DNA of 49,967 bases, the filler included, from Jimgerdemannia flammicorona (Eukaryota), in NCBI GenBank assembly GCA_003990765.1. It is 2 parts of 2 records of this genome, joined end to end, with 100 filler letters (N's around TTAATTAATTAA, not from the genome) between each part and the next. Parts side by side here need not be neighbours in the genome. Positions count along the whole stretch, not along the records: positions 1 to 24,938 come from RBNJ01000904.1; 1 more part is not named here. One strand, 5' to 3'. Every line of letters begins with the position of its first letter. Position 1 is the first letter of the stretch. A program made the translations under genes and the position numbers. Below, piece by piece: positions 2,189 to 31,900 of the stretch. The notes below the pieces were generated by a model. The model searched no databases, had not been told where the DNA came from, and worked only from the letters and a program-made list of their open reading frames with translations.

Positions 2189-2239
<51 letters not shown>

Positions 2240-2550: not shown

Positions 2551-2602
2551 ATTAAGAATTGAGATAATTGAGATAGAATAATAATTAAGATAGAATAATA
2601 AT

Positions 2603-4600: not shown

Positions 4601-5298
4601 AGATTGTGAGCATCTTAGTATAATGTATCACAGATCACAAAATGTTGTACAAAACGTTACTTTTTATTCAAGAGTATTCTATTATTGATGGATTTCATCT
4701 AAAAGAGGAAAGGGACTTCAGTTTTGGAACCCCATAGTACCTTGATTCAAGATCGCATGGCAACAAACATTTATCTATTCTGTATTTGTCTTGACCCCAA
4801 TAACTGGCGTAGATGCATCATCGCTTAGTGTGCTTAGTGTGTCGAAATGTCGCTTAGTGTATAGAAATTTATATTTCATAAAAAAACCCCAGATGCGAGG
4901 ATTAGATCCTCTATCAAGGCAGCGTCCCCACAGGCTGCCGATGGTGCAATTCGACCTGATGCCCAAATGCGGTTTTGGTGGCCTGAATTGTGTCCAATCG
5001 TTCTGACGTGCTCGAGGAAAAAGGAAAGATCAGCCACAGGAAATCAAGGCAACGTGCGGGGGCAAAAAAAGTGATTATAAATAGTGTATTCCAAACCGTC
5101 CGCAATTATATATAGTGCATTCAATAGAGCTTCGTCCGTTGAACCCGAACGTGTATCTGGTTACTGCATTTTGGTTTCCTTTCTGGCTTCTTGACGTGCC
5201 ATAGATAAAGAGCCTTCTTAGACATTTCGTGCACCGAGGCTTTGCAATATACAAAAAAAAAACTTACCACTATTCTAGCACAGCAATCTAACACCAAA

Positions 5299-8200
5299 AT
5301 GTTGGCAGCATCAGTATTGCTCATCTCCTCCTTGTTCCAAAGGCAAGACCCCTCTGCCCACCGATCCTCACACCCTCTCTCCAATGACACCGAAGCTACT
5401 CTTTCTTCTGACACCGCCTCCACCACATCGACCGCCATCGACACCGACGCCGACCCAGTTTATACTCTGAAATCCAAGCTTCAGGCCGTGGCTCTCTTGG
5501 ATAACCTCCTCTCGGCCTCAACCGCCTCCACCTACCACCGCCTCCTCGACGGAAACACCGCGGTGGCATACGTCTCCTATGCTCTCTCCGACCTCGCTTT
5601 CGTCTACCCAGGCCTCCCCACCAACTACCCAGGTCAGCCCGCCGAGGACTGGTCCGCCCGCGGGTTCCGCAACGCCGCCGGCCAGGCTCTCAAGGTCGCC
5701 CACATGGACACGCGCGCAGGCGCCCTCAACGCCCTGCAAGGCGCGCTGCGCGGGTCCGATTCCAAGGCGACGGCGGCCGTCTATGCCTCGTCCCAGGCTC
5801 TGCTCAGCATGATTCCCAACATGCACCTGCTGGCCCAGCAGCGAGGCAGATCTAACCCCGTTGTCCTGCATGTCGCCGCCCAGTCGTTTGACGACCAGCT
5901 CCGCTCTGTGCCCGAGGTCGACTCCGTCCTCGTTGCCCGCAACACGGGATTTGTCTTCCTCGGCTCCAACTCGGTCCAGGAGGCCCACGACATGGCCCTC
6001 GTCGCCCACCTCCTCGCCGCGAGGTCCGGCGTCCCTGTGCTACACTACTTCGATGGTGTCCGCACCGCTAACGAGGTCGCCACCGCCAAGGTGTTGTCGT
6101 ACCCCGAGATCGCTCGTCTTGCCGCTGAGCAGACCGCTGTCGGTGCCACCGAGTCCGCCGTGCCTTTCCAGCGCTCGTACGACCTCGTCGAAGACTTGCT
6201 GCAGCAGGTCTCCAAATCCCTCGGCCGCGACTATCACATCTTCGAGTACTCCGGCTCCGATTCCGCAGAAACCGTCGTTGTCACCCTCGGAGCCGGGTCG
6301 CAATCCGTCCGCGACGCCGTCGCAAGCCTCTCCACCTCCGGCGCGCAGGTCGGCGTGCTCAACGTCCGCCTCTATCGCCCCTGGTCCGAGAAGAACTTCC
6401 TCGCGGCCATTCCCAAGACCGCCAAAACTGTCGTCGTCCTCGAGCAAGGTGACGGCCTCTTCGCGTTCAATGGTCCCCTGTTCCTCGATGTCGCCGCGTC
6501 GTTCCGCTTCGGCGCAGGATGGGAGGGCGCCGGACCCCGTCTCGTGACCGCGCAGTCCAACTCATTCGCGCATCTCCGCCCGCAGCACTTCAAGACGCTG
6601 TTCGCGAACGCGCTCGAATCCACCTTCATCGACCTCAATGCCGACGAATACACTACTGTCGAACAGGAGGAGGAGAAGGCGCCCGCCGCTGCTTCGACGC
6701 AGGCCATCTTCTGGGACCTCGAGACGGCCGGGTCCGCGCAGGCGGCCAAACATGCAGCCTCGATCCTTGCAAAATCTGGCGCCAACGTCGATGCCTACAC
6801 CACGCAGGACGGCTACCGACCTGGAGGCCCCGTGGCGAGCACGCAGCTTAACTTCGGGACGCGACCGCAGGGCGGGTCGGCGACGCGCGCGGCGGACTAC
6901 GTGGCTGTGCACGATCCAGCCCTCCTCAAGGAGTTTGACATTCTCGCGACAGCCAAGCCGCGGTCTACCATCCTGCTCGCCGGACCGTGGAAAAACGCCG
7001 ATGAGATCGAGGGAAAGCTCTCCAATGACTTCAAGTTGCGCGCTACCCAGTTGGAGGTGCGCCTGTTCGCGCTCGACGCCGCAAAGATCGCAGCTGATTT
7101 GCAACTGAGGGAGACTGGCGTGGTCTTCGAGGCTGCATTCTTCCATCTCGTCCCCGGCGTGGCACATCTGGCCGGCGCACGCGATCCCGCCGCCGTCGCC
7201 GACGCCATCGCCTCACAGTACGAGGATTCGCTCAGTCCTGATCGCAAGGTTGGCGTGCTGGTGCGCGAGGTTGTCGGCCGGGTGGCGGCGGACCTGTCGC
7301 CGATCGATCTGCTCCCGACCTGGACGATCCTGGAGCGCGAATACAAGAACTTGCCAACGCACGTCGCGCCGCGCTTGGCCGCCAACACTGACACTGACCA
7401 CTCGGCGGCAGATCTGGACGCGGCGACGTTGCCGCACACGAAGAAGACGCACGAGACCGCCTGGCACGTCATGTTCGGTGACGCATACCAGTCCGTCCAC
7501 TCCCTGCGTCCCGACCTACACGAGAAGACCTTCCTAGTCAAGACCTCGCTGCGTAGGCGCCTCACCCCGCTCAACTACGACCGCAACGTCTTCCACATCG
7601 AGTTCGACATCAAGGGCACTGGCCTTAAGTACGAGCTCGGCGACGCCCTCGGCGTTCACGGTCATAACAACCCCGCTGCCGTGGCAGAGTTCCTGGCTTG
7701 GTACGGCCTCGACCCTCAATCGAGCCTGCTTCTCCCGGCCACCTCGCCCGCCGCCCCTGCCGAAACGCGCACGATTTTCCAGCTCTTCTCGCAGACCCTC
7801 GACATCTTCGGAAGGCCCACAAAAAGATTCTACGAGTCTCTCGCTGACCACGCCGCGGACCCCAAGGAGCGCCAGCATCTGTTGCACCTCATCTCACCTG
7901 AAGGCGCTGCCGAGCTCAAGCGTCGTGTGGATGACACCACCACCTACGCCGACCTACTGCGCGAGTTCACATCGGCTCACCCCTCGGTCGCGCATCTGGC
8001 CCGCATGGTCGCCCCCATCAAGCCGCGCCACTACTCCATCGCGTCTTCGCAGCGCATGTTCCCGGATTCGGTTCATTTACTTGTTGTTACCGTTGACTGG
8101 CAAACATCGAAGGGTGAGCGCAGGACCGGTCAGTGCACGAGGTATCTCGACGCGCTCAGGCCCGGAGAGGCTGTCACCGTGTCCATTAAGCCCAGTGTTA

Positions 8201-8771
8201 TGAAACTGCCGCCGCTCGATGAGCAGCCTGTCGTCATGGCTGGGCTGGGTACGGGGATGGCGCCGTTTAGGGCATTCATCCAGGAGAGGGCATTGGCCAG
8301 GGCTGAGAATAAGAAGGGTATGTCTTTGTTTTTATTTGTTTTCATGTTCATTCTCAATGGCAATCGCGCAATGCATCTTCTCACTAATCCTTCTCACCTT
8401 CTTAACTAGTTGGCGACATCGTCCTCTACTTCGGCTCCCGTCACCGTTCAATGGAGTACTTGTACGGCGAGGAACTTGAAGCGTACCTCGCCTCGGGCGA
8501 CCTGACGCACGCTGGTCTCGCCTTCTCGCGCGACCAGCCCGACAAGATCTACATCCAGCACCGAATGAAGGAGGACGTGGCGCGGCTGCGGAAGTGGCTC
8601 GTCGAGGAGAACGGTCATTTCTATCTGTGTGGGCCCACATGGCCTGTGCCGGACGTCAAGGACGCCGTTGTCGAGGCCCTTACCTCCACGGGCGAGCTGA
8701 GTGTCAAGGAAGCAGGAGAGGTCATCGAGTCATGGAAGGAGAAGGAGAAGTACGTGCTCGAGGTGTACTGA
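5299..8771 (+). CDS. MET10: Assimilatory sulfite reductase [NADPH] flavoprotein (alpha) subunit; exons 5299-8317 and 8410-8771, about 1126 aa
   Basis: N-terminal PFOR-like region (DGNTAVAYVSY, SVQEAHDMAL, LHYFDG). FAD/NADPH motifs RHYSIASS, GQCTRYL, GLGTGMAPFRAF. Splicing the gtatgt...ctag intron (8318-8409) restores VLYFGSRHRSMEYLYGEE, FYLCGPTWPVPD and terminal YVLEVY. First in-frame ATG is at 5299. Confidence 0.95.
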
Positions 8772-10868: not shown

Positions 10869-12747
10869 CTACTCCCCACGTTCTTCCGATAATATATGCC
10901 ACAGCATCCTCCCCTGTATCCTTATAATCCCGCACAACAGCGAAACCCCCAGCGTTACGCACCCAATCATCAGAAACGCGCCCTCCATATCCGTCCCATA
11001 TGCTTTAAACACATAATTCAACACCAACCCCCCAGCGTTCCCCCCCGCCCCAACCAACCCCGACACGACCCCGGCCGTCCTAGGCATCACGAACGGCACG
11101 AGCGCATACGTGGTTCCACACGCGGCTTGCGTGAAAAAACTAAACACTACCAACATAGCCATTGTCCCATGCAATGTCCCCGTCACGCGACTGAACGTCA
11201 CCAGCGACAAGCCTTCAAACGTCAAGATCCCCAGCTGGGCCAGGATGCGGCCCTGGGCGGGACGGGACGCGCGTCGAGCCAGCGCGTCGGAGATCAGGCC
11301 GCCCGAGACCCGAGAGAAGATATTCATGAGCCCAAAGACCGAGCCCAGCAGCGCCGCCGTCGTCTGATCAAGCCCGAACCGCGACCTGAAGAAAGCCGCT
11401 ATGACGTTGTCCACCGCAAGTTCTAGCCCGAAGCTCAGCGCATACTGCAACATCAGAACCCACACGTTCACGTCAGACAGCGCGGCCAGCACCGCAGCCG
11501 TCGAGGCTCTCACACCCTCAAACGGCTCTTCTACAAGCGTCTCGTCCTCCTCGTCCGGTGTCGGCGTCGTCAGCGTCGGTTTTGCTGGCGTCGTGGGGGT
11601 TAAGTGGTCGGTCGTCTTCACATCGGCACCGCGCTGCTCCGTCAGACGAAGGGTGGCGCGATGTTTTCTCCTCACTAGCCAGTCGCCCTCGGGGCAGTCG
11701 TCAGCGGCGTAGAGGTCGAGAATGCCAATGACAATGCAGATGAGCGCGGGGATGACGTAGGCGACGCGCCAGGCGTCGTGCGCGGGGAGTTGGAGGGAGA
11801 GAGCGTTGAAGATGAGAGGCATGATGAGGTAGCTGTGGATGTGGTCGAGAGAGGGCGTGGGGTGGAATGTGGGTCAGATAGATTGTGTGTTGCGTGCGTG
11901 AGAGGAGGATTCATTGAAGGTGGATACGTACGTAAGTCCGCCGCCCATATTGCCCCAGCCTAGTCGCGTTTTGAAGGGGCACGATTAGTGACGGAAACCG
12001 ACGCAATTACACAATCACGAACCGTAAATTCGAGGTTGCTTTACTCAAAGTCCATCCTAATCGACTTACCTGCGGCGATGGCGTTGGCGGCGCCGATTAC
12101 GTTCGGAGAGAACATTTGTGTGGTCCAGAACTGGCAGGGGACAAATGTCGCGCCAAGGATGCCAATGAAGAATCTTTGAAGCGAACGCGCACAGATCGTA
12201 GACGCGCGCGTCAGTCTAAGCCTCCATCTCACACTTAAACGAAGAACCACTGCCTCAATCCTTACCCACACACGCAACTCACCTCAACGCGACCAACCCA
12301 GTTCCATTCGTAACTAGCCCTGCTAGCCCCGTTGGCACGGCACCGATAATTAATATCGCGGCCATGACGCGTCGCGGACCCCACCGGTCGCACAAGGGCC
12401 CGACGACGATGCGGGCGAGGATGGTGGCGGCGACGGAGGTGATGTTTGCTTTGGCGACGTCGTCGTCCGTGAGTGCCAGGTCCTGCTGTAATGTCGGTAT
12501 CAGCGGGCTGATTGCGAACCAGCCCGTGAAGGCTGCGAGGAAGGAGAACCAAGACTGATAGGGCGGTGAAGGAGGGAAGGGGGGGGGAGGTGTTAGAGGA
12601 TAAGGGTTGGGAGAGAATAGGGAAGCGGTGGATACCTACGAAGTGCAGCGCGCGCATGTGCGGCCGTCCGAATGAGAGGATATGGATCTGGGTCGCGCGG
12701 CCCTCGTCGTCGACCTCGACACGGTGCGAAGCGGTGTGTGCCTCCAT
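10869..12747 (-). CDS. NRT2: High-affinity nitrate/nitrite transporter (MFS, NNP/NRT2 family); exons 12747-12640, 12554-12283, 12173-12070, 11959-11932, 11832-10869; 491 aa
   Basis: Four GT-AG introns give a 1476-nt frame. Motifs [30 protein letters not shown], nitrate signature [38 protein letters not shown]. Confidence 0.93.
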
Positions 12748-13129
12748 CGAATTGATTGTGCTGTGCCGGCTCGCAAAAAGATCACACTACGGGTACGTTT
12801 GGTGTTGGAGGGCTTTCCTCGGAGAGAGGCAATCATGAGTCAGACAGGACGATCAAGGTCTCAGGCACAACCTACACAACCTACCCAGTCACAACTCAAC
12901 TCGAAATGACTAGGGCCACTTAGGCCAATCGACAACGGATTAGTAGGATCTTTGGTAAGCGAATTTCGTAAGCGGGGCTTTTTCCTGTTTGGGATCCCTC
13001 GTGTCAACGAAATCAATACGACGATAGGCATTGTCATCTGTCTTTCCTGCGAATGATCCTTCTCGTGTGCCCGCGCCATACCTTATCAAAGCGAGGTTTT
13101 GGATTGATACGCTTGTACGTGGGGGAGCG

Positions 13130-13678
13130 GGATAGTCGGTGGCTGCTGTTATTCTATCTTGCGATGTTTGGTCATGGGAGGAGAGGAGAGAGCCTTGTGA
13201 ATCGTCTTGTACATCCTCCTCTAACATATCTCGGACTTCCCACATCACCTCTAACTCTTCTCTTTCATCTGTATCAGCATCCCAACTTTTACCATCATCT
13301 AAATCACGTAAAGCAACAAAGTCGATTTCGAAGTTTGTTGTGAATAAATCCAATTTCGCTCTGATGCAGCTGAGGTTGCTGGAATTGAAAGAAGTTTCAT
13401 AGCCACCAAAGCCAATTGAGGTGCACAATCTCGTTTTGAGCTCTGCGTTGACATCTTCATTAAATAGCCAGATGTGTGGTGATCCAAATACACCTTCTTT
13501 ATATATACTTGAAGTCAGAAAGCTGCATGATAATTGCATTTTGAATATCAGCAGTATTACCAGCCAGATGTGCTAGTCCTATTTCAACAATATCATCCCA
13601 TTTGCCTTGTTGAAGTTTTGCACCTCTATAAAAAGAATGGACAATATATGTCATTATCACAGCAGGATTATAAAAAAT
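13130..13678 (-). pseudogene. Fragment of a hAT transposase C-terminus (dimerization domain), truncated by the Copia LTR
   Basis: APQLALVAMKLLSIPATSAASERNW is a hAT dimerization motif; upstream FYNPAVI..VHSFYRG; frameshifted. Confidence 0.7.
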
Positions 13679-13831
13679 TGTTGTGGAATGTGGACTTTGG
13701 AGAGAGAAGCAAACTGTTTATTGCTAATTCTTATGCACTTTTACGCATCGCAATTAGTGACGTTTACATGATGATGTAGTCAAGGAAGGCTGCGCCACCA
13801 TATATCGAGTTGTAACCTACATATTTCAATA
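13679..13831 (-). repeat. 3' LTR of Copia copy 1 (about 153 bp)
   Basis: Follows purine tract gagcaggag; starts tattgaaata (TG decayed to TA), ends ccacaaca. Homologous to 32512-32658. Confidence 0.75.
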
Positions 13832-16800
13832 CTCCTGCTCAACGAGATATGCAAATTCCCAAACTGCAATACTAAGCTATAACCACTGCAAATCTCGCTG
13901 CAATGTTCAGACCGCTATCTAGAAACCAAAAAACACCTGAATTGCCTGCTTAAAGCTCGAAAAATAGGTTGAAAAGTAGAGATGTGAATATTTGTAGATG
14001 AGCAATGTTGGTAGAAATCTGCAATGTAGTGATAGGGAAAAGAAATGCATTGAATATGAAATAGATTTCGAAATTGATCTGCTGAAATACTTCCATATAG
14101 CTTACTATTGTTGCTGTTTTTATTGCTGGCATATAGTTTTTGCTGCCGTAACTCTCATTCCCTTTACGCATAGATCAAATCTTGTCTTTGGGAGGGCTTT
14201 TGTTAATGAATCTGCTATCATACACTCTGTTGGAGTGTATTCCAGGTGTATAGTGTCATTTTCCATGCATTCCCATATGAAATGATACTATATATCGATG
14301 TGTTTCATTCTAGTGTGGTGTATAGGATTCTTTGCCAAAGCAATCATTGATTGGTTATCTTGCTGGAGTAGTGTAGAGTGCCGTTGCTTATATCCCAGCT
14401 CCTTTAACAGTTCTCGAAACCAGATAGCCTCCTTTGTTGCCATTGACAATGCTTGATATTCTACTTGCATAGAGGATGTTGCCACTGAAGATTGCTTACG
14501 TGTTTACTACGAAATGGCTCAGTTGTTTACTTTAAAGATATATCCAGTCATAGACCTTCTGTCATCTAAGTTACTGGCCCAATCAGCATCACAAGAACTG
14601 AATAGGCATATAGTACTCCTGCTTTGCCCATTATCACCACTCAAACTGAGTGTATAGTCTGCAGTTCCTTTGATGTACCTAAAAATTTGCTTGATTGCCA
14701 TCCAATGGCTATTGTCATAGCATGAGGAATACTGCGCCACTTTGTTTACTACAAAAGAGATATCAGGTCTCATCCCTTGCATAAGATACATGAGGGATCC
14801 CATGGCTTGTTGATAGGGGATATTGTTTCCCTCAAGTGTAGTATCAGACTTCTTTAGTTTCATGAATGTTTCCATAGGTGTCCCGACTGGTTTGCATTTA
14901 CTCATCTCGAATTGCTCGAGAATATTTTGAATGTATGTGGCTTACATTAGGTGTATAGCATGCTCGCGCCTGTTACATATAATCGATATTCCAAGGAGAT
15001 AGGACACTTCACCTAAGTCCGTCATTTTGAATTCTTGGCATAGTGTAGCCTTTACGTCATTGATTTCACTTGCCGTTCTGACTAAAATAATATTGTCAAC
15101 CCAAATTCCCAGGTATATCATTCCTGAGAATGTATGTCGGGTATATATGTATAGATCAGCTTCACAATGCTTAAATCTGTTGTCTAGGAGATATCCATCG
15201 ATCTTTCGATTCCACAACCTTGCCGCTTACTTGATTCCATAGAGCCCTTTGCATAATTTACATATGAGCTTGTTTCCATCATTGTCATATAGTTCATATC
15301 CTTGTGATTATCATATATATAACTCCATGTCTACGTCACCATTCAAGAATGCTGTCTTTACGTCCATTTGGTATATTTCGTAGTTGTACTTGGCTCCAAT
15401 CGCAAGAAGTATTCTAAGTGAAGTCAACTTAAATACTGGGGAAAATGTCTTATCATAGTCTATGCTGTAGTCTTGCGAGTACCCCTTTACTACAAATCGA
15501 GCCTTATACCATTCTATGTTGCCATTAGCCTTATGCTTGATCTTGTAGACCCACTTTGATCCTATAGCTTGTCGCTCTGCCAGAAGACTTACTAGATCCC
15601 AAGTGTTGTTTTCGATGAGCGAACTGTACTCCTCATCCATAGCCCTTCTCTACTCCTTCTTATTATTTGAGTGAATGGCTTCATTGTAGTTCTCCGGTTC
15701 ACTGGTTGTTGCAATATATGCACATTTGTAAGAATCAGCGTAGTTCATGTGATGTCCACTATTGTTGCTATGACGGAATATCTTAGGCAGGTCCCAATAA
15801 CCTCCTAAATCTGTATCTAGAACTCTGGATTTGCGCTTTTGTTTGCCCTTCGGAGAGGTATCCTCTTTGTCATCCTTGTCCATAATTTCCATTATCCTTG
15901 GTTCTTACAACTTCATTGCCATTTGAATGGGTTGCACATTCGCTGGCGTAGGTCCCAAGGATGTCTTTGGCGTAGTCTTCAGTGTTGTTCCGGGTGTAGA
16001 TGTTGTTCCGCTAGCCTTTGCAGTTGGCATAGATGTTGCTGGCTATACTGTCGAATTCACTGTCAGATTCACTGTTGGATTCGAGATAGGAATTTCCATG
16101 TAAATTTCCTGCTTAGTCTCCTTGAACTGTATGTCGCATGAAATGATCATACATTATTTCTGCAGGTTCCAAAGTCTGTATCCCACTCTATCGTATCCAA
16201 GGAATATATGCTTATCTGCCTTAGGTTTGAACTTGCCTCAGTTGTCACCTTTGTCCAGAACGTATGCCTTACTTCCAAATATGCATAAGTGTGAAATATC
16301 AGACTTGGATCTATTCCATAATTCCTCAGGAGTAAGATTGCTGTCATTCCTGGATTGCTTGCTGGGATCCTTGCTTAGAGCTCAAGAGAAACAATAATTT
16401 CGAATATATGCTACTATATTCACTACTTCCACCCAAAAGGACTTTGGTAAGCCGGCCATATTCATTATCATTCTAGCCATTTCCACTACCATTCAATTGA
16501 ATCATTCTGCCACACCATTTTGCTGAGGTGTATAAGGGGCTGTTGTAGAGTACTATATATTGTTCTTCTTCAAGAAGTGTCTGAAACCTTTATTGACGTA
16601 TTCTTTGCCATTATCTGAGCGTAGGGTTCATATTCTACATTCCATCTTGTTCTCCATGGCTGCCTTGAATTCTTGGAATTTGTCGAATGCCTTGTTTTTC
16701 CCCATAATGAGATATATGTAGACTTTGTATGTATAATCATCAATGAATGTAATAAAATACTTCTTCTCGGAGTGTGATGCTATTCACATAGGGCCACAAA

Positions 16801-17762
16801 TATCTGTATGAATCAAATCAAGAATGCCAGCCACTCGCTTCATTCATTCCTGAAAAGGTTACCAGGAAGCCTTGTTTGCTGCACATCCATTACAAAAGAA
16901 ATCTGGTAGCATATAGTCTGGTAAACCATACATGGACTTGCTCCTTACCATCTGTTTGAGACTCGTTTTACCAATATGTCCTAAGTGTTTATGCATTATA
17001 TGCCAGAAATCCTCTCCTATCATAGTTGCAGAATATGCGGATGTAGCGCCACTTGGTGTGCCATTGATTGCATATAGATCCCCCTTTTTCGATACATACA
17101 TTAACTCCTTATTGTTCTTCAGATTGATTACCATTACACCATTCGGGTGTATATTTACTCCTCTGTCCCCACGAGCCATTATCTGGCCTATTGAGAAGAG
17201 GTTCTTGCCTATATCTGGAGCATATAATATGTCCACGAAGGTACCCAAAGGTTCATCAATGTTTCCATGTAGATGTATGCCTATGTTGCCTTTCCCTTGA
17301 GTATAAATGACATTGTTGTCACCTAGCTTGATAGGTATGGGATGCTCGAACTTCTCGTATGTAGAGAACCACTCCCGGTGAGCCATTATATGCTGTGTTG
17401 CACCCGAATCCATGAGCCAGACCTCTTTGCTGCATGCATAAGCACTGTTCGGCATATAGCTTATATTTGCGCTGGTGCCAATGTTGACATCACTATTTTT
17501 CACTATCTGAAAAGTGTTTCCTTTATCAGGATTTGTAGATGTCAAATTGCTGCCGCATTTGCAACTGGCATTGTTTTTCGAATTATCTCCCACTTCTACA
17601 TATGGGTAGGTTGCTACTTCTGCAAAGAATAGATCTCCCCCATTGCTGCCACTGTCATTATTAGCATCCACTGTATTTGCCTACTGTTGTCCACCTTTCT
17701 CCTTTTTCTTGCAGTTGCAGTCCTTTTCACGATGTCTGAGCTTGTCACAATAGAAGCATTTC
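13679..17762 (-). mobile_element. Ty1/Copia retrotransposon, copy 1 (decayed; its 5' part is cut off by the Gypsy inserted at 17763)
   Basis: Order on the minus strand: CCHC CFYCDKLRHREKDC, protease WLMDSGATQH, HKHLGH..CNGC, integrase IHTDICGP/FITFIDD, RT WVYKIK, QMDVKTAFLNG, WVDN, RNase H CDADWA, QDNQS, KHIDI. Many stops and frameshifts. Confidence 0.93.
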
Positions 17763-19799
17763 TGTAAGCACACAACCTCCAAGCCACCAAAAGTATGCGT
17801 GACCTCTGAACAAATCTGGAAATCACCTGCTTGATCATGAAGCTGAGTCAAACCAAAGTCACAGCTCACAAAGCTGAGTCAATATGAAGTTACGGAACAC
17901 AAGATCTATACAAATGGAATCTTACCAATCAGGACCAAATGCATATATACCGAGCACTGAGATGCATCGAATCAGAGAACCAAAAAACAAACAACAACCA
18001 TAACTTCCAAATACACAAACATGACCACCGAGATCTACAACTGTATCTGCACTGACATTTGGAATGCCATTGTCAACCGGGCCACACCCCCTCTGCCCCT
18101 CATGAATATCCATAGCCTAGCACCTCTCTACTTCATGGAAGCCTGATGGAATGCCCTGAATATGCTTAACAAGGCCCACCGAATTGGACAAATCTCAAGC
18201 TACTACCAGATTGGCCACCTCCTGGAAGACATGGTCAAACACCACCATGATACAGACATTACCCAGATGTCTCAACACCAGAAGCTCATCACCCACAAAC
18301 ATCGAGAACTCTTCTATGAGTACAATACCTTTATTCCCCACCTCCGAGTCACTACCAGCGAAATGGTTGCTACCCTGTCCTATGGCCAAATCGATGACAT
18401 GATACAAGAACTCAACCACAAGTACCTCGAGTATGTCGAAACCACAGACAGAATCTTCCCGCACCCTGACGACCACATCCTGCAAATGCCTCAAGTTGGA
18501 TACGCCATGAAGAATGTCTATGATATAATCCACTTCGACGAAGATGAAGCAGAAGACAACAATCCCTCTGATGCAGACATGACCTCAAGCCAAGGATCTC
18601 TGCCAACCCTGATCACACCACCAACCTTGCCGATGAACTTACAATAGTTTATAATTACATATGAGACTTATTGGGACAATGACCATTGGCATGAATACCA
18701 ACCCACATTCACCCCCAACTACTTCAACTATAATGAAGAGACCAGAGAACACAACCTGTACCTCCAGACAACCCTTGAAATTGAACCAACCACTCTACCA
18801 CCCGAGTACGAGTGACATGAACCACAGCCGCCAGCTTACTACAACCCTGCGACTCATAGTGCTGTAACCTATAGAAGGTACACAGACAGCAAATCCGATG
18901 AAAGCGAAGACAATACACCCATCCTTCACCCATCAACACCCTATTCAGCCTATGAGACAGACGATGCTATCCTGTGGGATGGAGACGAAGTCCCAATATA
19001 TTACTACCTCAGCCAACAAGGAGAAGTAATCCGCGAACCACTCTTCCTAGACGACTACTTCATCAGAGATGATGCAATCGATGGTGATGTCATTGAAGAC
19101 TGCCCAGACAGCGCCTAAACCCATAAATAACCTAGCAGTAATAATATAGTTAGATTAGCCTTGTACGACATGACTGTGAACTGACTCAGTAGTCAGACGA
19201 TCCCTTGACATGTCAGATCACACTTGTACTATGTGACTGCATTCCGACTCAGCAAAGCACTTAGTGCTACATCCATATCTAGCATAGTCCAGATAACCCC
19301 TCACTAGTATAAATACCCCCTCCACCAGACCTCAGAATCTCAGACTTGAACAATCCGAACACAACTTCTGAGCACTTCCCCACAATACCCCTTCACACAA
19401 ATACTCCTAGTATAGCAATATCATGAATAGCAAATACATAAACCTATTCTATAATCCACAAACCACTCTTAAGTAAATCCGCTCCCTGTTAGGTCCTACT
19501 CCTAACCCTGTCACGAAATTTCCTAATTGGGTATTGTCTGCAGCGATACGCCAATTCAACTAAGCTGGTCTTAGTTTCTCAAACTTCCTGAAATACGGAA
19601 AATCCTGAACATCCAGAACTAGTCCAAAAAGGACTTTAGTTGAGACGTCAACCCGATCTTGAAATCAATAAGTGTAGAGGACGTACTCCATACGAAATTG
19701 ATCTTGACCATAAGAAAACAGTCTTTCAGAACATCCAGAATATCCAGAAAACCTTTCCAGAACTACGTAAAGGTTACCCTAAAAAGTAACCCTCTTACA
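17763..19799 (+). repeat. 5' LTR of Gypsy copy 1 (2037 bp)
   Basis: Inverted termini TGTAAG...CTTACA. The left end falls exactly where Copia gag is cut. TATAAATA at 19308. Followed by act and a PBS-like tggtagtagcgg (19803-19814). Confidence 0.8.
18021..19118 (+). pseudogene. Decayed 365-aa ORF of unknown function inside the LTR (U3)
   Basis: One frame from ATG 18021 to TAA 19116-19118 with only three in-frame stops (TGA 18144, TAG 18645, TGA 18813), each explicable by a single transition. Confidence 0.7.
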
Positions 19800-21825
19800 A
19801 CTTGGTAGTAGCGGTTTACAATCCAATTCTGCTTCAAGACGCTTCCTCACCCTGCTATAAACCCTTCTGCGAATTCCTACAAGTTGGTATAAAGCCCAAC
19901 CTCTGAACTGAAATTTATCTGAACCATCTGACAATCTGGAGAGAATTGAACCTGACGTACAAGGACAATTTGACCTCCACACCTGCAACAAGTGGGATAA
20001 ACTTCATTCAAAGAAAGAAGTACTTCAGTTAAACTAGCAAATAGGCGAAACCCTATTCACCGAACTCCTTGCACTACACCCAGCAAGTCAAGACAAAGAA
20101 GGTCTTATTGAAGCCTTCTTTACTCTTCTCAATAAGAGTTTTGTCAGCTCCACAAATCCAAGTGACCTAGGACAACCAGCAGCAGTCTTTCTAGACTTAG
20201 TTCCTCATGAAGCCCAAGCCTCTGTAGCCAAGTGGCTCAACTCTACCAACTTTCACTGCACCAGGACCAAGACTGCATTATACTACCGATTCCAGAACAG
20301 CAAGGCCCGCCATATCCTTAAAGAAGAAGCAAGAGAAATCCTTCATCAACTACCTGACCCCGAACCTAAAGCAGGCCCTGCTACAGCCCTACCCGAATCT
20401 GAAACTAATACCGAACCTGAACTTGACTTTGAATTAAGTCCATCTGAAATCAGATATATAACTGATTCTGTCTACTTTGATGCTGAGCAAACCCAATTAC
20501 ATGGGGACCAAACCGAAGAAGAGGAGGAGTATCTCACCGAATTCAATCCCGGATACACCACCGAAGGAGACACACATCCATCAGGACAGAATACACCTAC
20601 ACAGCAACAAACAGCTATCTATCAAGCCCTCACTCCAGATCCACAACTACTACTCCAGCAACTTACACAGACCCAAAGAACCCTATCACACTCTGTACCA
20701 GTACCTCAAGTAGTACCAGTAACACCACTACCAGCAGTCCAACCGCCTCCAGCAATCAATATGGCAAACCAACAGATTCTAGACCTCACAGCCCAAGTAG
20801 CTATAATGGCAGCAACTATTACTGCCTTAGCTGAACAGACCCGACCTACAAAAAATCTGAGCCTACCTACCTTCAATGGTACTGCACAAGAAGTCCAAAG
20901 CTTCATTAGTGTAGTTGACACCAACTTCGAAGCCAATCAATAGACTAATGAGCGAGTTGCCGACTGTGTTCTGACAAACAATCAAGACCACACCCTGGAA
21001 CAACTCTTTGCTACCACTACAGCCTATGTCCGCTGAGTTGTTACATTCTTCCGAGGACCTGCCAAAGAATGGTGGCGAACCCTTCCTGAAAAACCCCTCA
21101 CATGGGATACCTGACCTACAGTAGTTGCTCAGAATACAGCAAACAATGCCCCAGGATATGGAGCCCATTCTGCAGCCCCTGGACTCAAACAACTCATGAT
21201 TGCTCAATATTGTAGTGAAACCATGATTGCCAAATCTCAAGTAAAACTCTGCAACCTCAAATTTGATGTACATGGCAAAGAAGAATTCGAAACCTTCTGT
21301 ACAAAACTCAAGTCACTCCTGAACACTGTTGGCCTAGAATACATTGCCAATGACGAAGCACGAAATGGTACAAGAGCAGACCATTTATTTGATGCCCTGC
21401 CTGAATGGCTTACTAGAAAAATCCAAGAACAAGGCCGCCCAGTTGGTTGTGATCACCAACAATGGTGCCTGGCAAGAATCAAGACTATGGTCAAGCGAAT
21501 CCTAACAGCTGGACCAATTCTGCCCCGAAGACAATTCAACAACAAGGAAAAGACTTGGACCAAGAAAGAAGAACCTAAGCATGAAGCATCCCGAGCTCTC
21601 TCCACATTCACCTCTTGGACACCCAGAAATCATGAACCCACCCAGCCAAGTACCTTCAAGAAACTTACTGAAGGTGAAAGAAATGAACTTCGAAGAAGCA
21701 GAGCATGCTTCTATTGCCAAAAGACAGGACACATGGCCAGTGCCTGCCCCAACTGAAAACCCTGAACAGCAACACGAGCAACTGTTACCACTCTGCACCA
21801 CCTCAACAACCTGACCACCAGAACA

Positions 21826-22233
21826 CTAGATTTTGTCAAGTTAAGACAAACTGCTAAAGCCCCAACCAAAGGAAGTCAAAAAGCAGCCGGATATGACCTG
21901 TATGCAGCCGAAGAAGCTACAATTTCCAACCGAGAAGTCAAACAAGTCTATATAGGAATCAGTATCCAAATCCCTGAAGGACATGTTGGAAGAATATGCT
22001 GTCGCAGCAGCCTAGCACTGAAAGGACTCTCAGTAGAAGGAGGAGTTATTGATGAAGATTATACAGGCGAAATCATTGTCCTCATCCGAAACCACAGTTG
22101 GACACCCTTCAAGATCCCTATTGACTTCTGCATTGCCCAGATCTTGTTCAAAAAAATCGAGTCAACCCTGACAGTCAAGGAAGTCTCTGAACTACTACCC
22201 ACCATCCGAGGATCCAAAGGATTTGGCTCATCA
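21826..22233 (+). other. dUTPase domain within the Gypsy gag-pol polyprotein
   Basis: All five trimeric dUTPase motifs in order: AGYDL, RSSLA, GVIDEDYTGEI, IAQIL, RGSKGFGSS. Confidence 0.93.
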
Positions 22234-24938
22234 AACAAGGCCCCAGCCCAACCTACCATGAGCAAAGAAGAACAATTCTATAAGAAGATTGAAGATGGAT
22301 ATGTACCAAGTGGCCGATGCCCTCATGGTATTGGAATGTACTCTTCCCGAATGATTGATGATTGCTTCTCTTGTGTCAATGAACTGGCTCAAAGAAGAAC
22401 CAATAGAAGGAAAGCTCCTACAACTGAAATCACCAGCATTGAATCAGACAAACTGCTCACCCTTAAGGCTTTTGTCAATGGAGCACCTGTCAAGATTATA
22501 ATAGACAGTAGTGCCTCAGGCAACTTCATCAATGAGGAAACAGCCAATAGACTCAAGGTCTTCACCTCCCCAGTACAGCAAACTCAAGCAGTTGCTACAG
22601 CTGATGGAACCTCACATGTTATTAGCAAAGAAGTCCACAATCTACCCTTCCAAATTGGCGACTACCGAGTACATGTTACCCTCCAAATCGTACCACTTTC
22701 TGACAATGAAATCATCCTTGGGACTCCATGGTTAAAACAAGAGAACCCCATGATTGATTGGGTAAACCATTCTCTGACCATCAAGAAAGGACGCCACAAC
22801 TTCAAACTACAAGGCGAAAAGGACTCACTCAACTCTAGTGACCCTGGACCAAAGATCATCCACATCAACAAGCTACAACTTAAGAAATTGGCCAAAAAAT
22901 GCCCTCTCTTCACCATCTCCATCCGACCATCCAAAGGAGAACCTGAGAACTCTGAAGAAGATTTTTCTAAAGTTGACAGCCATGTCAGACCACTACTCCA
23001 GAAATTCCGAGACATATTCCCAAAGAAGCTCCCAAAAGGCCTACCTCCCAAACGAGCAGTAGACCATGCAATTAAGACTATCCCAGATGCCAAACCAGCC
23101 TTCAAGTCAATCTACCACATGTCTCCAAGAGAAATTGATGCACTCAAGAAGGAAATCGACGAACTCCTAGAATAAGGATTCATCAGACCCAGTGTATCAC
23201 CCTATGGTGTACCAGTCCTCTTTGTTGTCAAGAAGGGAGGAGACCTGCGAATGTGCATTGACTACCGTGATCTCAATGAGCAGACCATCAAGAACTATTG
23301 CCCACTACCGAGGATTGATGAAATATTCGATAGGCTCACCAACCCACAATTCATGAGCTCTTTTGACCTGCGAAATGGTTACTGGCAAATTACCATGAAA
23401 GAAGAAGACATCTACAAGACAGCCTTCCGAACTCGCTATGGACACTTTGAGTTCCTGGTTATGCCCTTTGGCTTAACTAATGCCCCAGCAACCTTCCAGA
23501 CACTGATGAATACCATTCTACATCCATACCTGGACAAATTCGTTGTTGTCTACATTGATGACATCCTAGTCTTCAGTAAAACCCTGGAGGAACATCTTGA
23601 ACACCTTGAACTAGTACTACTGAAACTCCGAGAAAACCGACTCTTTGCAAAACTCAGTAAGTGTGAATTTCTTCTGAAAGAAATCCAATTCCTTGGACAT
23701 ATTGTCACTCTGAATGGAATCAAAGTGGACCCCAGCAAAATCTCTGCAATCAAAGATTGGCCCAGACTGAAGAAGCTGAAAGACCTCCAGTCATTCCTGG
23801 GATTAGCAAACTATTACAGACGATTTGTTGCCAACTTTGCTAAAATCGCTACTGCCCTCACCCAAATGACCAAGCACAACAAGAAACAAGAACAACCTTG
23901 GACCATGAAACAAGAGAAAGACTTCAACAATCTTGTAACTTGGGGACCCGAACAAGATACCGCCTTTCAAGTACTGAAAGATGCCCTGATAACCACTCCA
24001 GTACTTCAAGCAGCAAATCCTGCCCTACCATATGAAGTCACCACTGATGCCTCTGACCTAGCTCTTGGAGCAGTGCTCATGCAAGAAGGACACCCTGTGG
24101 CCTATCACTCCTGCAAGTTCAATGATGCCGAAATCAACTACGCAACTCACGAGAAGGAAATGCTAGCCATCATAGACACTCTGATCAAATGGCGACCATA
24201 CCTAGAAGGAGTACACTTCACTATATTAACTGACCACAAGTCACTAGTCAACATCAAGACCCAGGCTACCCTTTCCCGAAAGCAAGCCAGATGGATGAAA
24301 GTTCTCACCAATTTCAACTACGAAATTCAGTACTGCCCTGGCAAAGAAAACATTGTTGCCAATGCAATCTCCAGACCACCCATTGAAGAAGTCATCCAAA
24401 CTCTCACTTTGATTACAAACTCCATCATGGAACAAATCATTGCAGCATGTGTTGATGATAAAGAAGCTCAAGCACTCCGAGAAATCCTGAACAATGATGA
24501 TGCTGACAAACATACCCAGTATAATCAATACCAACTCAAGGACAATGTGATCTACTACAAGGACAGACTATATGTCCCAAACAACCGAGACCTCCGAAGG
24601 ACTATCCTATTCGAATGTCATGATGCCCCTACAGCTGGACATTTAGGATTTGATAAATGTTATGAAGTTATCTCCCGAAACTTCTATTGGCTCCGCATGG
24701 CAGATCAACTCAAGACCTATATCACTTCCTGTGATGCCTGCCAACGAAACAAGTTCTCAACACTAGCAAAACCCGGCTTACTTCACCCTATCCCAGTACC
24801 ATCTGCAAATTGGGAATAAATCTCTATGGACTTTATTGTACAACTACCCCAAACCAAGAACGGAAAAGATGCAATTGTTGTCTTTGTGGACTATCTCAGC
24901 AAACAAGCCCACTTTGTACCTACTACCACTACTGCAAC

Positions 24939-25038
24939 NNNNNNNNNNNNNNNNNNNNNNNNNNNNNNNNNNNNNNNNNNNNTTAATTAATTAANNNNNN
25001 NNNNNNNNNNNNNNNNNNNNNNNNNNNNNNNNNNNNNN
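24939..25038. other. Artificial contig-joining spacer (44 N + TTAATTAATTAA + 44 N)
   Basis: Exactly 100 bp, symmetric, with a palindrome giving stops in all six frames at 24983-24994. Confidence 0.95.
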
Positions 25039-25949: not shown

Positions 25950-28900
25950 CACATTATAATAGATATAGAGCTACATATATATTCATCAACTATAGAGATA
26001 TGAACTATATGATAATAAGCAAAAAGAGCTTATATATATATAAGTTATATAAAAGTCTCTATAGAATCAAACAAAGGGTAAGGTTGTAGAACTGAAAAAT
26101 TAACAAATATCTCTTAGATAATAGATTTAAGCATTGTAAGGCTGATCTATATATATATATCTGTCATATATCTTCAGAAATGGTATAATGAGATTAATAA
26201 TATAAAGGTGACTCTATACCAGAAATTTAAGATGATAGATATGAGTAATATATTATATATTCTTGAAATATCAATTATATATAATAGATATAAGTACACA
26301 ATATACATATCTATTACAAGCTATATATATATATTCAGACTATACTCAAATGATTTAATATAAGTAAATATAAATCTATCAGAACATCTATAGAGATATC
26401 TGTAAGATTAAAGAAGTCTAGCAATAATATGTTCAAGGAATTCAAAGACATCTCCTATTGGTAAGCTGTGAGATCCCTCATATATCTTATACTTGAGATG
26501 AGGTCTGATATATTATATACAATTAACAAAGTTGTACAATATTCATCCTACTATGACAATTTGTATTAGATGACAATCAAGTATATTTTCAGATATATTA
26601 AAGATATAGTACATTATATACTCAACTTAGGAGATAGTGATAATAAGAGATAAAGTAAAAGTACTATAAGGTTATCTGATATATATATAATACTGATTAG
26701 GCTGGTAACCTAGATGAGAGATGGTCTATGATCAGATATCTCTTTAAAATTAGTAAAAATAGAATTATTTCATAGCAAACATATAAGCAATCTTTGGTAG
26801 CAATATTATTTATGCAAGTGAAGTATTAAGTATTATATAGTAACAAAGAAAGCTATATAGCTTTGAAAACTAATATAGTTATGAATGCAATTCAAACTTC
26901 AGCAAAGTGGCCAAGAGCTGCTTAACATTATGTGGAACAATCATGCAATTTCCCCTGGCGGACTTAGTTTAGCTCATTTCATGCAGTTTCTTGTCCCTTT
27001 CTATGCCAAAGATAACTTAGCTAGTGGTATTTTAAAAATATGCCAACCATTAATACGAGTTAGTAACAATGTAATCAGTCCAGCGACTGAGTATTCGTCA
27101 CATCTCAGCTAGTCAGGTGTATACTACACCAAATTGCAATTAGTCGCTAGTATTTACAATTAGTTTGCATAACACATTCACAATGCCCCCAATTTGCACT
27201 CGGTCTCATGGTCCTTTGGAATCAGCTATAGCCCCAAGACCAGTTGCTCCCCTAGCCCCCTTACATGAACCTCACCCCTCCCCCATTCCCAATCTATCTG
27301 GCCTACACACTTGTCACAAAGAACAGCTAGTCGCACTGTATTGCAAACATCATCTACCAGTCGAAGGTCAAAAAGCCACACTAGTTATGCATCTCAACTT
27401 GCACCATCCAAGTCCTGACCCTCCACCTCAGCCGATTATTAGAGAGCAAGCTGAAGATGCCCTTATTGAATACTTAATCCCCACTTTAGTTGGGTACCTT
27501 GCAATACATCCATCTATCATACCGACGGGCCCCAACTTAATTACTCTGCCAATATCAGAGCTACTGGTGGGCTTGTTACAGGCAATTTCTCTACCGGCCA
27601 CTACTCCTCCCTCAGCTATGGCCCCCTTCATGCTGCCACCTCTCATAATAAGGTTGATGTCACAATCGCTGCCAAATCTGCAAAGTGGTGAGTCTTTCTC
27701 GTCTCTCATTTCGGATGCCATGCTTCAACGGAATTGGGTACCACCCAACTTGTTGGCATCACTAGATGCAGGCAACTATCAGATTCTATCTGAATGGACC
27801 AGCAGTGCTCTTATTTCGTGATCAAGCAGCTGCAAAAAAGCAGATATACATACACCCAACCATGACCTAGATCTACCACTGTGGCTCGAAGCTATCTTTA
27901 ACATCTGAGGTGCTCTACTGGATCTGGGTACCACCTGATCAACCTCGCATACATCCCATACTCCTCAACTTCTTGCCCATACAATCTTTATCATTAAAGT
28001 AATAAATGATCATTATGACTGGGTGGCACTTCAATACTTTGACTATCAAGTTCGTATACTCAAGGCCTCCTTCCCTGACTTGGACATCGGCAATCCAGAC
28101 ATGGTTTGCTGTACATTCAAGACAATCCTTGGCCAACCTTTCTCAGCATCCTTAGCATACCAACGTCACTCTACATTCTCCTATGCTGGATCTCATGTGG
28201 CAGGAAGTTCATCAACTGCCTACTTGGCTGGTGGCCCAAAACTGGTCTCATCTACCAACCTCTTGTGCTTTCGATGTAGGGTGCAGGGACATGCCATCAG
28301 CTCCTGTACCCAAACCCCACTCCAGCATCCTACTTTCCCATCCAAGCCAGATGATCCTATCTACCCAGATGGTGTAGCAAGCTTGGTCTGTCATAACTTT
28401 AACAGCTCTGGTTGCTCCTATCGAAACTCTGGTCAAGCACATGTATGCCTCTTCTGCTATGGACCTCACACAGCCCCAGCTTGCTCTGCTCGCCATGGCT
28501 AATCTCTCGATTTTCTCCACTTCTAGTCACCCAACCACCCTGTACCATATTAAGGAGTGGAAAAGGATACTGCATTCGCATCCAAACCCATCACTTGTTC
28601 AGTACCACCTAACAGGTCTCTACCATGATTATCAGCACAGAAATCACTCTCACCCTGAGCTTCACATCGACCTCATATCCGACAACCTTACCTCTGCTTA
28701 CCAGCACCAAGAAGTTCTCTCCACCAACATTCTCACTGAGCTAGCTGCGAGTTGCTATCTTGGCCCATTTTCGTCTCTCTCCTCCATACCACCAGAATTC
28801 CACCCCTTTCGCAATGCACCCCTTGGTGTCATTCCTAAGAAGCACTCGTCCAAATTTCGTACTATACAACATCTATCCTTTCTCTATGGGAGTTCAGTCA

Positions 28901-31900
28901 ATGACAGAATCGATCCTGAGGAGTTCTCAATCCAGTATCAGTCCATTTAAGCCATCATTCTCCTTCTCCTCTCAGTCAGCTCTACTGCACTCTTCTGGAA
29001 GGCCAATGTGGCTGACGCCTTCCGCACCATCCCAGTATACTGCTCCGATTGGGCTATGCAGGGTATCTGCTGGCTTGGTCTTTTCTTCCTCAATATATTC
29101 CTCCCCTTTGGTCTTCACTCCACTCCCTTTATCTTCACATCTCTCATAGACCTCTTTACCTAGATCTGTATTCAACTGTACAATCTTCCTAACTTGGGCC
29201 ATTTCATTGATGACTTTATCTATGTCGCACCTCTGTCCAGCACATTCTCCTCCTATAATCAATTTTATGCTACTGTATCTCGATTCGGCCTCCCACTCAA
29301 ACCCTCCAAAGATATTCCTCCTACTCCAACTATAGAGTATGTTGGCTTCATTCTTGATGCTCCAACAATGACAATTAGTCTCCTAATGGAGAAACACACA
29401 TGCATTCTTATCTTACTAGCATCATGGCTTACACTGGCTCAGCAGACTCGATCATACTATCTATGTCTGCATTCACACCATGAAGCTCAATCACTCTCGG
29501 GCCATCTTATGCACATTGTTCAAATACTTCCAGATGGGAAGGTGTTTTGCAATAGCATCATTCACTTCACTTCCTCTTGGAAACTGCCCTATGCGGGGCG
29601 GCATTTTCCACCTCCTCAACTAGCCACCAACTTATATGGTGGTATGATATTCTACACTCATGGCCAGGTCATCGCCTGCTCTGCCATTCTGAGTGGCTTG
29701 ATTGTGGTCTGTTTACAGATACATCTGGGACACTTGGTACTGGTGGCCTGCTGGGCCAATGCTGGTGGAGTACTCATTGGGCTCCCTTCTTCTTAGATCT
29801 GAATGGCTATGATATATTCTGGAAAGAAATGTTTGCCATTTGGGTCTCATTGGTGCTCTGGGGCCCCTTGTTTCATTCTCAACGTATTATTCTCTGATGT
29901 GATAGCCAGCCCTATGTCGAATCATTGACCAGTGGTCAGGCATGCCATCATCCTCTTGTCAATGACTTACTTCATCGTATCATTCTCTTACATCTCGAAA
30001 TCGGATTCGAAATTCAAGCTTGTTACATCCCTTCAGCATCTAACCCTGCAGACCCCTTATCTCACCATATACTTCCTCCACATTCCCAGGACCTGTTGCC
30101 TACATTAATCACATCCCTCTTTGGCTTTGCCATCAATTCGACACCTGCCTCTACCAACGTACCCACACTCGAACAGGTAACTTCTGGTCAGGCACCAATT
30201 CTCTACACCAATTTCTCAACTCCTGCAATATCGTAGAGGCCGCTGCTTTCTCTCTTCAAGATGAATTACTCAGTTATTGGGCTCTTTGGCTTGTCCAAGA
30301 TGGCAAGCCCTACTCCACCATCAAGAACTACTTCTATGATCTTGCAGGCTATCAGGTTGCTCACTGGTGTGGTCCTCCACTCCAGCACCTTTCTCTACCC
30401 CTCTTCAACACCATTATGAAGTCTATTCAGACTCACCCACCACCTTCCAGTTCACTCGACCGGCTTCCTATTATGCGCCAACACCTCTGGTCTATCCGTC
30501 TCTCTCTCCACATAGACACTCCTTTTGGTGCTACTATTTGGGCAGTGGCATGCTCTGCTTTTTATGGCTTAATGCATGTTGGTGAATTTACTACTCGAGA
30601 TGGCTCCATATTCAATCCGAATTGGTAAATTTATCATCACCATCTTCATCGCCGACAGGATGATACCCTTTCTCGACCATTCTGGGCTCTACATCTTCCC
30701 TGAACAAAAACAGGCGGAGCAGATGATGTCTTCCTTGGCTTCTCTGGCGCCTTCAATTGCCTGTGCACTGCAATTGACAATATGGTCCATATTCTCCCAG
30801 TGCAACCTCATGACCCCGCCTTCTGCCTTGGCCTGGGCCAACCACTTTCTCGATCTACATTCATTGAAGCAATTTGATCTCTGCTCATGGGCACCTCCCT
30901 AGCTGTCAGTATTTATGGTCACTCCTTTCAAATTGATGGTGCCACGCTTCTGGCAGCCAGGGGCTATCCTGATCATGTCATTCAACTTGCTGGTCAATGG
31001 AAATCTACTGTATTTCTCTGCTACATTCGACACCTCGACCACATTCTCCCCAAAACCATGGCAACACTAGCAGGACTCCCTCTACCCGATCTTCAGCGGG
31101 CCATGGGTTTGGCCAGTAATGGCCGAATTTTGCCCATAAGTGGGTTATGGCATCATTAGGAGCCTAAAACCACTTCCCAGGCCCGCAGTTTTGGTCCCCT
31201 TCGCTAATGCGAATGGCGGGCCTTAGAGGCATATGCTTCTATATAGCCAAACCTACCCCACTTCATCCTCTATATATATTCTACATTTTATGCTTCATAA
31301 TCCCCCCTTTTCTACTTCGTTGAATTGGTCACTCGATAGACACTTTGATATAGTTATGAATACAATTCAAACTTCAGCAAAGTGGCTAAGAGCCGCTTAA
31401 CATTATATGAAACAATCATACAATTTCCCCTTGATAGACTTAGTTTAGCTCATTTCATGCAGTTTCTTGTTCCTTTCTACACCAAAGATAACTTAGCTAG
31501 TGGTGTTTTAAAAATATGCCAACCATTAATGTGAGTTAGTAATAATGTAATCGGTCCAGCGACTGAGTATTCATCACATCTCAGCTAGTCAGGCATATAC
31601 TATGCCAAGTTGTAATTAGTTGCTAGTATTTACAATCAGTTTGTATAACCCTCCCACCCATCCCCTTTTAGTAGTATATAATAAAAGAAGGCCCTCTTCG
31701 CTAATGCGAATGGCAGGCCTTGGAGGTATATGCTTCCATATAGCCAAACCTACCCCGCTTCATCTCCTATATACATTCTACATTTTATGCTTCATAATCC
31801 CCCCTTTTCTACTTTGTTGAATTGGTCACTTGATAGACACTTTGCTAAAAAAGTTGAAATTTTCTCAAGAACAGTACTCTATACTACTCTAATAAGATAA

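Follow-up and report, generated by a model that had tools for sequence, protein, structure and literature searches.

The DNA examined here (the window) is a 49,967-nucleotide stretch from Jimgerdemannia flammicorona (GenBank assembly GCA_003990765.1), of which positions 1 to 24938 come from RBNJ01000904.1. It was analysed with respect to an open reading frame (ORF; 18021 to 19118) located in a putative 5' long terminal repeat (LTR; 17763 to 19799) of a Ty3/gypsy retrotransposon, and all features of this element described below are on the plus strand. The contig part ends at 24938, within the integrase core, and is followed by two runs of N (24939-24982 and 24995-25038) around the linker TTAATTAATTAA. 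Because the window joins separate contigs, features either side of 24939-25038 are not genomic neighbours, and because of the break at 24938 the 3' LTR of the element is not available.

A gag-pol region (20038 to 24938) occupies a single frame downstream of the putative LTR, interrupted by seven stop codons and cut by the contig end. Pfam analysis and translation identified, in this one frame, a CCHC zinc knuckle (zf-CCHC, 1.6e-05; in 21115-21756), a dUTPase (PF00692, 2.3e-33; residues 30-156 of the ORF at 21766-23175) with the aspartic protease (RVP_2, 3.1e-11) directly after it in the same ORF, and reverse transcriptase (RVT_1, 4.9e-36), RNase H (RT_RNaseH, 4.6e-33) and integrase zinc domains (Integrase_H2C2, 6.3e-20) in 23176-24819. 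The order of the CCHC Gag knuckle, protease, reverse transcriptase, RNase H and integrase is that of Ty3/gypsy elements (Metaviridae), and the dUTPase domain lies within the polyprotein, as in dUTPase-bearing fungal gypsy elements. By its domain content, the element at 17763-24938 is a Ty3/gypsy retrotransposon with a dUTPase.

A decayed Ty1/copia element, recognised by its RVT_2, Pol_BBD and gag_pre-integrase Pfam matches and by translation, is found on the minus strand immediately upstream (13000 to 17762). The CCHC knuckle of its Gag, CFYCDKLRHREKDC (17717-17758), begins one codon from 17762, and the remaining Gag sequence is absent. The copia gag gene is therefore broken at 17762, indicating that the gypsy element was inserted into it, splitting the copia element, and that the inserted DNA begins at 17763.

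The 2037 bp from 17763 to 19799 are bounded by 6-bp inverted termini, TGTAAG (17763-17768) and CTTACA (19794-19799), and a TGG-led sequence resembling a primer-binding site (PBS), TGGTAGTAGCGG (19803 to 19814), is located 3 nt past the end. The region thus has both the TG...CA inverted termini and the adjoining PBS-like site of an LTR, and no tRNA gene to match TGGTAGTAGCGG was found within the window. The termini, an ORF with three stops at 18021-19118 and a TATA box at 19308 downstream of it were all present where the original prediction had placed them. A second copy of the LTR was not found in the window, either by blastn, which returned the self match only, or with a repeat finder, and a purine/pyrimidine 28-mer search of the window for LTR copies decayed by transitions gave 2 matches, where ~2.6 were expected by arithmetic. 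With a single copy in the window, the assignment as an LTR draws on the contig cover, the interruption of the copia gene, the inverted termini and the site resembling a PBS.

Contig cover was obtained from Logan contigs of four public runs at 80% likeness, and the contig depth recorded in this way does not equal copy number. Three of the runs (X1, X2 and X4) are of DNA type, and the fourth (X13; 35 million letters) is only guessed to be RNA. Position 17763 falls in a bin (17706-17906) where depth increases sharply, from 1.4 to 606 in X1, from 0.2 to 47 in X2 and from 0 to 11 in X4. At the other end, one X13 contig diverges at 19799 and continues with 255 unlike letters. No contig from the four runs joins across the ORF, which was counted in favour of a long LTR. 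An X2 contig was also found to carry 40 extra letters at 17792-17801, resembling a second copy of the adjoining ~33-nt unit and suggesting that other copies of the LTR have a tandem duplication near the 5' end.

Part of the depth data nevertheless speaks against a single LTR of this length. The last third (19113-19715) is 2-3x deeper than the ORF part in X1, X2 and X4 (~2090 versus ~1030 in X1), and the ORF part has only ~1.4-1.5x the depth of the internal region in the same runs, the pattern that a short LTR combined with an internal 3' ORF would give. Under that arrangement, the true LTR would be ~0.5-0.7 kb long and start in 19120-19300, the ORF would be internal, in the position of env, and the window would contain a tandem or rearranged copy with its upstream unit truncated at 17763. 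The LTRs of fungal gypsy elements are usually a few hundred bp in length. The left end of the 2-kb LTR also depends on indirect evidence, as the window includes no 3' LTR, solo LTR or target-site duplication, and extra ORFs after pol are on record in the available passages of PMC6431247. However, the inserted DNA at the copia junction begins exactly with TGTAAG, which matches in inverted form the six bases that end just short of the PBS-like site. Such a match is expected once in 4096 at a fixed place. Furthermore, neither a purine tract nor a TGTAAG-like terminus was found in 19100-19310, upstream of the TATA box, leaving a short LTR without an obvious start. Since contig depth is not copy number, the excess over 19113-19715 could stem from related short-LTR or non-autonomous families sharing the repeat and unique 5' regions (R-U5). 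A short LTR is considered unlikely, and a single LTR spanning all 2 kb is regarded as well supported and likely.

The ORF consists of 365 codons and is dead in this copy. It begins at the ATG at 18021, the first in-frame ATG past an upstream stop at 17958, and ends with the TAA at 19116-19118. Three internal stops are present (TGA at 18144-18146, TAG at 18645-18647 and TGA at 18813-18815), making four with the terminal stop, and the other five frames have 14, 25, 8, 23 and 23 when counted in the same way. Shuffled sequences had a mean of 16 stops (sd 3.8), with three or fewer in none of 5000 shuffles. Base composition differs among the three codon positions in a gene-like manner, and the relative synonymous codon usage of the ORF correlates at 0.75 with that of the gag-pol of the element and at 0.22-0.25 with that of two host genes. 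Six of the 13 best-supported differences between the ORF of the window copy and the public contigs are synonymous.

Only two relatives of the ORF protein were found among 5.8 billion clustered proteins and 1.84 billion representatives, with one match among 330 candidates in one search, one among 25 in another and two in the 1.84 billion representatives. In a search confined to proteins of 30-69 residues, none of 11 candidates was related. The first relative, P0003 (128 residues, truncated where its contig stops), has the same start, MTTEIYN, and is identical to residues 1-128 at 113 of 128 positions (88%), with Arg where the window has its first stop. The second, P0002 (247 residues, open), covers residues 115-364 with 157 of 250 positions identical (63%) and 202 similar (80.8%), has the same C terminus and carries Gln at the second and third window stops. 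The two gaps in the P0002 alignment are of two residues each and hence represent in-frame indels. No DNA copy was recovered from metagenome contigs queried with P0001 and alignment A1 (one peptide pattern), from genome contigs queried with the back-translated conserved PHPDDHILQMPQV or from phage records, all collections with few or no fungal genomes, or from viral contigs, also poor in fungi, queried with P0002, the RT-IN ORF and the back-translated PHPDDHILQMPQV.

Selection on the protein was assessed by neutral simulation. Sequences evolved to 63% identity acquired 3.7-5.2 stops and had a chance of 0.003-0.014 of acquiring none, a value that counts for less because protein databases admit open copies only, and the family totals three sequences, which also tells against the case. 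The test of replacement conservation is free of this open-copy bias. The observed proportion of similar residues (80.8%) exceeds the neutral value of 72.5-73.7% (sd 1.8) and was not reached in any of 1200 runs (three sets of 400).

The small number of relatives in 1.84 billion representative proteins and the greater abundance of the distal third of the LTR relative to the ORF part could both be accommodated if the ORF region were foreign or host DNA, captured in the LTR of one sublineage and functionless for the element. However, replacements are more conservative than neutral, indels are in frame, codon usage resembles that of gag-pol and not that of the host genes, and protein searches revealed no host-gene homologue; an origin by capture is very unlikely. 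Together, the conservative replacements, codon usage and synonymous share indicate a long-standing gene of the element and not a fresh capture. The claim that this is a genuine and formerly intact accessory gene of the element is upheld by its two homologues, the conservative replacements and the codon usage. We read it as a lineage-specific accessory gene of the unique 3' region (U3) of the LTR.

The loss of the gene in this copy can be traced to transitions. Comparison with P0003 shows 15 differences, 12 of which can be assigned unambiguously to a G>A or C>T change on the side of the window copy. Several affect CpG and turn Arg (CGN) into Cys or His, and a C>T change (CGA to TGA) would account for the stop at 18144. 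The transposons have CpG observed/expected ratios of 0.34-0.53 with an excess of TpG, compared with 1.14 in genes, which points to decay of the repeats marked by methyl-cytosine deamination. Classical repeat-induced point mutation of the Neurospora type was rejected as the source of the stops, as the transposons combine low CpG and a TpG excess with no excess of TpA. The density of stops is of a similar order in the ORF (3 in 365 codons) and in gag-pol (7 in 1633), and the ORF was therefore probably intact at insertion. This copy would then have been inactivated by C-to-T and G-to-A changes, many at CpG, producing the three stops in the ORF and the seven in gag-pol. Over the window as a whole, CpG observed/expected was 0.04-0.53 in transposon parts and 1.14 in the gene-rich segment 5200-12800, and two AT-rich blocks (1-4000 and 32000-35000) are almost without CpG.

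The predicted product of 365 residues has an isoelectric point (pI) of 4.42 and a net charge of approximately -43. Its C half was found to be acidic and aromatic, as originally described, with D+E at 21.6%, K+R at 3.1%, F+W+Y at 13%, Pro at 10% and a net charge of -36. The maximum 19-residue hydropathy is 0.94, indicating that there is no signal or membrane segment, and from this value the protein is predicted to be soluble and cytosolic. Pfam returned no family for the ORF protein, and a profile search of the PDB gave two matches only (E 0.46-0.47), which are not meaningful. The ESM Atlas model of P0002 has a predicted local distance difference test score (pLDDT) of 0.39 and a predicted template-modelling score (pTM) of 0.15, and all of its Atlas neighbours have template-modelling (TM) scores of 0.30 or less, none of them usable. 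For P0003, which represents the N-terminal part, shared features in the Atlas numbered at most 155, below the useful range.

Two PPxY motifs, PPEY (residues 260-263; 18798 to 18809) and PPAY (residues 270-273; 18828 to 18839), were located in the window copy exactly as first reported. They are 10 residues apart, and at least two PPxY occur in 1.0% of whole-protein shuffles and 1.1% of C-half shuffles. The motifs of late domains and Rsp5 adaptors are thus present, and it had been proposed on this basis that the protein recruits an Rsp5/Nedd4-type ubiquitin ligase, either for particle release or for destruction of a host defence factor. Motifs of the PPxY type work in disordered stretches, and those found here lie in a proline-rich, acidic stretch that is probably disordered, given the low-confidence model of P0002. 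However, conservation of the motifs, set beforehand as the test of this proposal, fails in the one comparison available, as P0002 (the sole relative covering the region) has LSEY in place of PPEY and PLAY in place of PPAY. A single C-to-T step separates proline from each of the differing residues of P0002 (L, S and L), so that decay of the kind seen in the window may have removed the motifs from P0002. With two sequences to compare, the change at these residues may have gone in either direction. The absence of both motifs from P0002 weakens the Rsp5 and budding idea, and budding has no obvious role since neither an env gene nor another membrane protein was seen in the present part of the element. 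A literature search by exact-word matching, with subscription papers outside its scope, found nothing linking PPxY, Rsp5 and retrotransposons. Recruitment of such a ligase is accordingly to be regarded as doubtful, and the budding role first suggested for the protein was not supported.

The box TATAAATA (19308 to 19315) was taken as the main promoter of the LTR and as the end of U3. The ORF lies upstream of this box, so that a complete ORF is contained in the LTR if the LTR begins at 17763. That the ORF is U3-encoded, as first claimed, stands as regards its position upstream of the TATA box; its location in the LTR is the most likely one, given the termini, the PBS-like site, the copia junction and the contig cover. 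Near the front of the LTR, a motif search revealed two copies of AAGCTGAGTCAA, 32 nt apart (17839 to 17882), each including TGAGTCA, which we take to be an AP-1/Gcn4-type heptamer. A TATA-like sequence, ATATATA (17943 to 17949), is found 72 nt before the ATG and may be a promoter for the ORF. A further heptamer, TGACTCA (19182 to 19188), precedes the main TATA box by 120 nt, and in total three of the nine TGASTCA sites of the window fall within the LTR, which makes up 4% of its length.

In X13, depth increases from 15 (bin 19113-19313) to 3274 (bin 19314-19514) and stays at ~3000 over 19314-19715 and at ~2600-3300 over 19314-19799, a step that hints at a start of R after the TATA box. The ORF part has a depth of 0-19 and gag-pol is uncovered in this run, whose nature as RNA is a guess and whose uncovered parts are not usable as evidence. 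The depth over the R-U5-like segment 19314-19799 could be due either to plentiful transcripts that start in the LTR or to a distinct short repeat of high copy number. Rfam identified no family over 17600-20100, and the R-U5 segment folds no better than its shuffles (z -1.71). Self-priming by pairing of 19439-19451 with the PBS-like site was also considered and dropped, as the two are only 77% complementary.

A combination of acidic and aromatic residues is known from acidic activation domains. The composition and charge of the C half given above, together with the TGAGTCA-type repeats that precede both U3 TATA boxes, would be consistent with a transcriptional activator, in which a folded N part binds the LTR or a host factor and the acidic aromatic C region drives the LTR promoters. 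Foamy viruses offer a precedent in their accessory ORFs, one of which extends into the 3' LTR, and their internal promoter (available passages of PMC3185757). However, neither a DNA-binding domain nor a nuclear localisation signal was found in the ORF protein, and composition alone is weak evidence, leaving an activator role improbable.

The proposal that best fits these features is that a dUTPase-bearing gypsy element inserted in a copia gag gene, that 17763-19799 is its 5' LTR, and that the U3 of this 2-kb LTR would carry a complete accessory gene (ATG at 18021, stop at 19116). Because the 3' end of the genomic RNA serves as the template for U3, the ORF would be the last cistron and would occur twice in each integrated copy, and the gene would persist in solo LTRs. 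Splicing over ~6 kb is unusual in fungi, and the ORF may instead be driven by its own promoter at the front of the LTR, formed by the TGAGTCA repeats and ATATATA. The product might act in trans via short linear motifs in its poorly ordered C-terminal two thirds and may be an adaptor or regulator for the element, candidate modes being the binding of an Rsp5-type ligase through PPxY and acidic transcriptional activation of the LTR.

We assign a probability of about 0.6 to the reading of this region as the 5' LTR of an inserted dUTPase gypsy element with a complete accessory gene in U3. In addition to the depth pattern and the size of the protein family, this estimate allows for three adverse points: the TGAGTCA and ATATATA motifs were picked out post hoc, RNA evidence for the ORF or for use of the putative promoter was not found, and searches of Pfam, the PDB, the ESM Atlas and the protein collections revealed no similarity that carries a function. 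A bolder extension, which we put forward only tentatively and consider rather unlikely, is that every LTR of the family, solo LTRs included, could be a self-contained protein gene with its own promoter, scattering many copies of a trans-acting acidic regulator through the genome, for example one that would activate its own promoter or block methylation-based silencing by the host.

Other features of the window were recorded. Two host genes encode a sulfite-reductase-alpha-like protein (5209-8409; POR_N, PFOR_II, POR and FAD_binding_1), the architecture of which is presumably that of fungal MET10, and a major facilitator superfamily transporter (10869-11873). Both fit a fungal genome. Beyond the linker, an element at 26873-31847 has split direct repeats, in which A1 (26873-27173) and A2 (31348-31649) are 91% alike and B1 (31193-31350) and B2 (31690-31847) are 92% alike. 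Arranged as A1-internal-B1-A2-B2, these repeats have the layout of Ngaro/DIRS-type tyrosine-recombinase retroelements. For the plus-strand ORFs at 27144-31159, Pfam gave nothing at E <=0.01, and only a faint viral RNase H-type match (E 0.15) was obtained, for 29898-30236. Tandem arrays at 36039-36330 and 37799-38281, with 15-nt units and a second set of ~100-200-nt repeats, occupy a GC-richer stretch, and an inverted repeat of 1.2 kb (42511-43707 and 44393-45601; arms 77% alike and ~700 bp apart) is located in AT-rich DNA.

Fungal gypsy elements with a dUTPase in Pol are known, including PosPlaTy3-3, -4 and -5 of Postia placenta and elements of Phanerochaete chrysosporium (PMC2864245, available passages), and Tmt1 of Tuber melanosporum also carries a dUTPase (PMC6431247 and PMC12581995, available passages). 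Compared by description, the present element resembles PosPlaTy3-3, in which the dUTPase is at the amino terminus of Pol (PMC2864245), and differs from Tmt1, in which the dUTPase is between protease and reverse transcriptase (PMC6431247). The available descriptions of the PosPlaTy3 elements, the P. chrysosporium elements and Tmt1 include no LTR-internal ORF.

The brtn and CERV genes are both internal to their elements, brtn in antisense orientation. As lineage-restricted additional gypsy ORFs of unknown or non-canonical function, brtn of Botrytis Boty/BcGypsy1 (10.1101/2021.04.13.439636), CERV of Caenorhabditis elegans Cer1 (PMC10309623) and ORF0 of the rice elements Retrosat2, RIRE3 and RIRE8 (PMC3485330) are comparable to the ORF described here, as far as the available passages of these sources go. 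Retrosat2 has LTRs of >3.2 kb, but its ORF0 precedes gag-pol within the internal region (PMC3485330), whereas the present ORF most likely sits inside the LTR itself. An exact-word literature search of the same scope as above, directed at ORFs inside a retrotransposon LTR, returned only retroviral cases and internal extra ORFs.

The likeness to mouse mammary tumour virus (MMTV) in overall layout, part of the original prediction, is a fair one. MMTV has a dut-pro gene and, in U3, an LTR-encoded sag gene (PMC11998498, available passages). In the element described here the dUTPase is likewise directly upstream of the protease and, if the LTR begins at 17763, a complete ORF would lie within it before the promoter box. 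Such an ORF would be carried by each of the two LTRs and by the genomic RNA at its 3' end. The likeness does not extend to the product, as Sag is a type II transmembrane glycoprotein and the ORF protein (pI 4.4) has no hydrophobic segment (hydropathy <=0.94), no sequence similarity to Sag and no Pfam or PDB match. Nor does it extend to the rest of the element, which is a Ty3/gypsy retrotransposon of a fungus-like host and not a retrovirus, and whose available part showed no env gene.

Foamy viruses carry the accessory genes tas and bet/bel2, the latter reaching into the 3' LTR, together with an internal promoter. Their LTRs are long, with some coding sequence in U3, as proposed here, and expression of their accessory genes need not depend on the main LTR promoter (PMC3185757, available passages). 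The element described here has promoter-like motifs in front of the ORF. Tas is made from the internal promoter and switches on the LTR, a logic to which the activator role considered above is comparable. In contrast to foamy viruses, the ORF here would lie entirely inside the LTR, an internal promoter is suggested by motifs, and there is no sequence similarity. Coding within the LTR is a hallmark of complex retroviruses, as exemplified by MMTV sag and the foamy-virus bel genes. If the reading given here is correct, a fungal gypsy element has independently reached the same gene placement, beside a dUTPase-protease arrangement like that of betaretroviruses; solo LTRs, which are generally regarded as inert relics, could remain protein-coding, and the product, an orphan under selection, might represent a novel means by which a transposon interacts with its host. 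Should every LTR of the family prove to be a gene, this would be the first description of a protein encoded in the U3 of a fungal Ty3/gypsy element, an arrangement convergent with the plan of the complex retroviruses.

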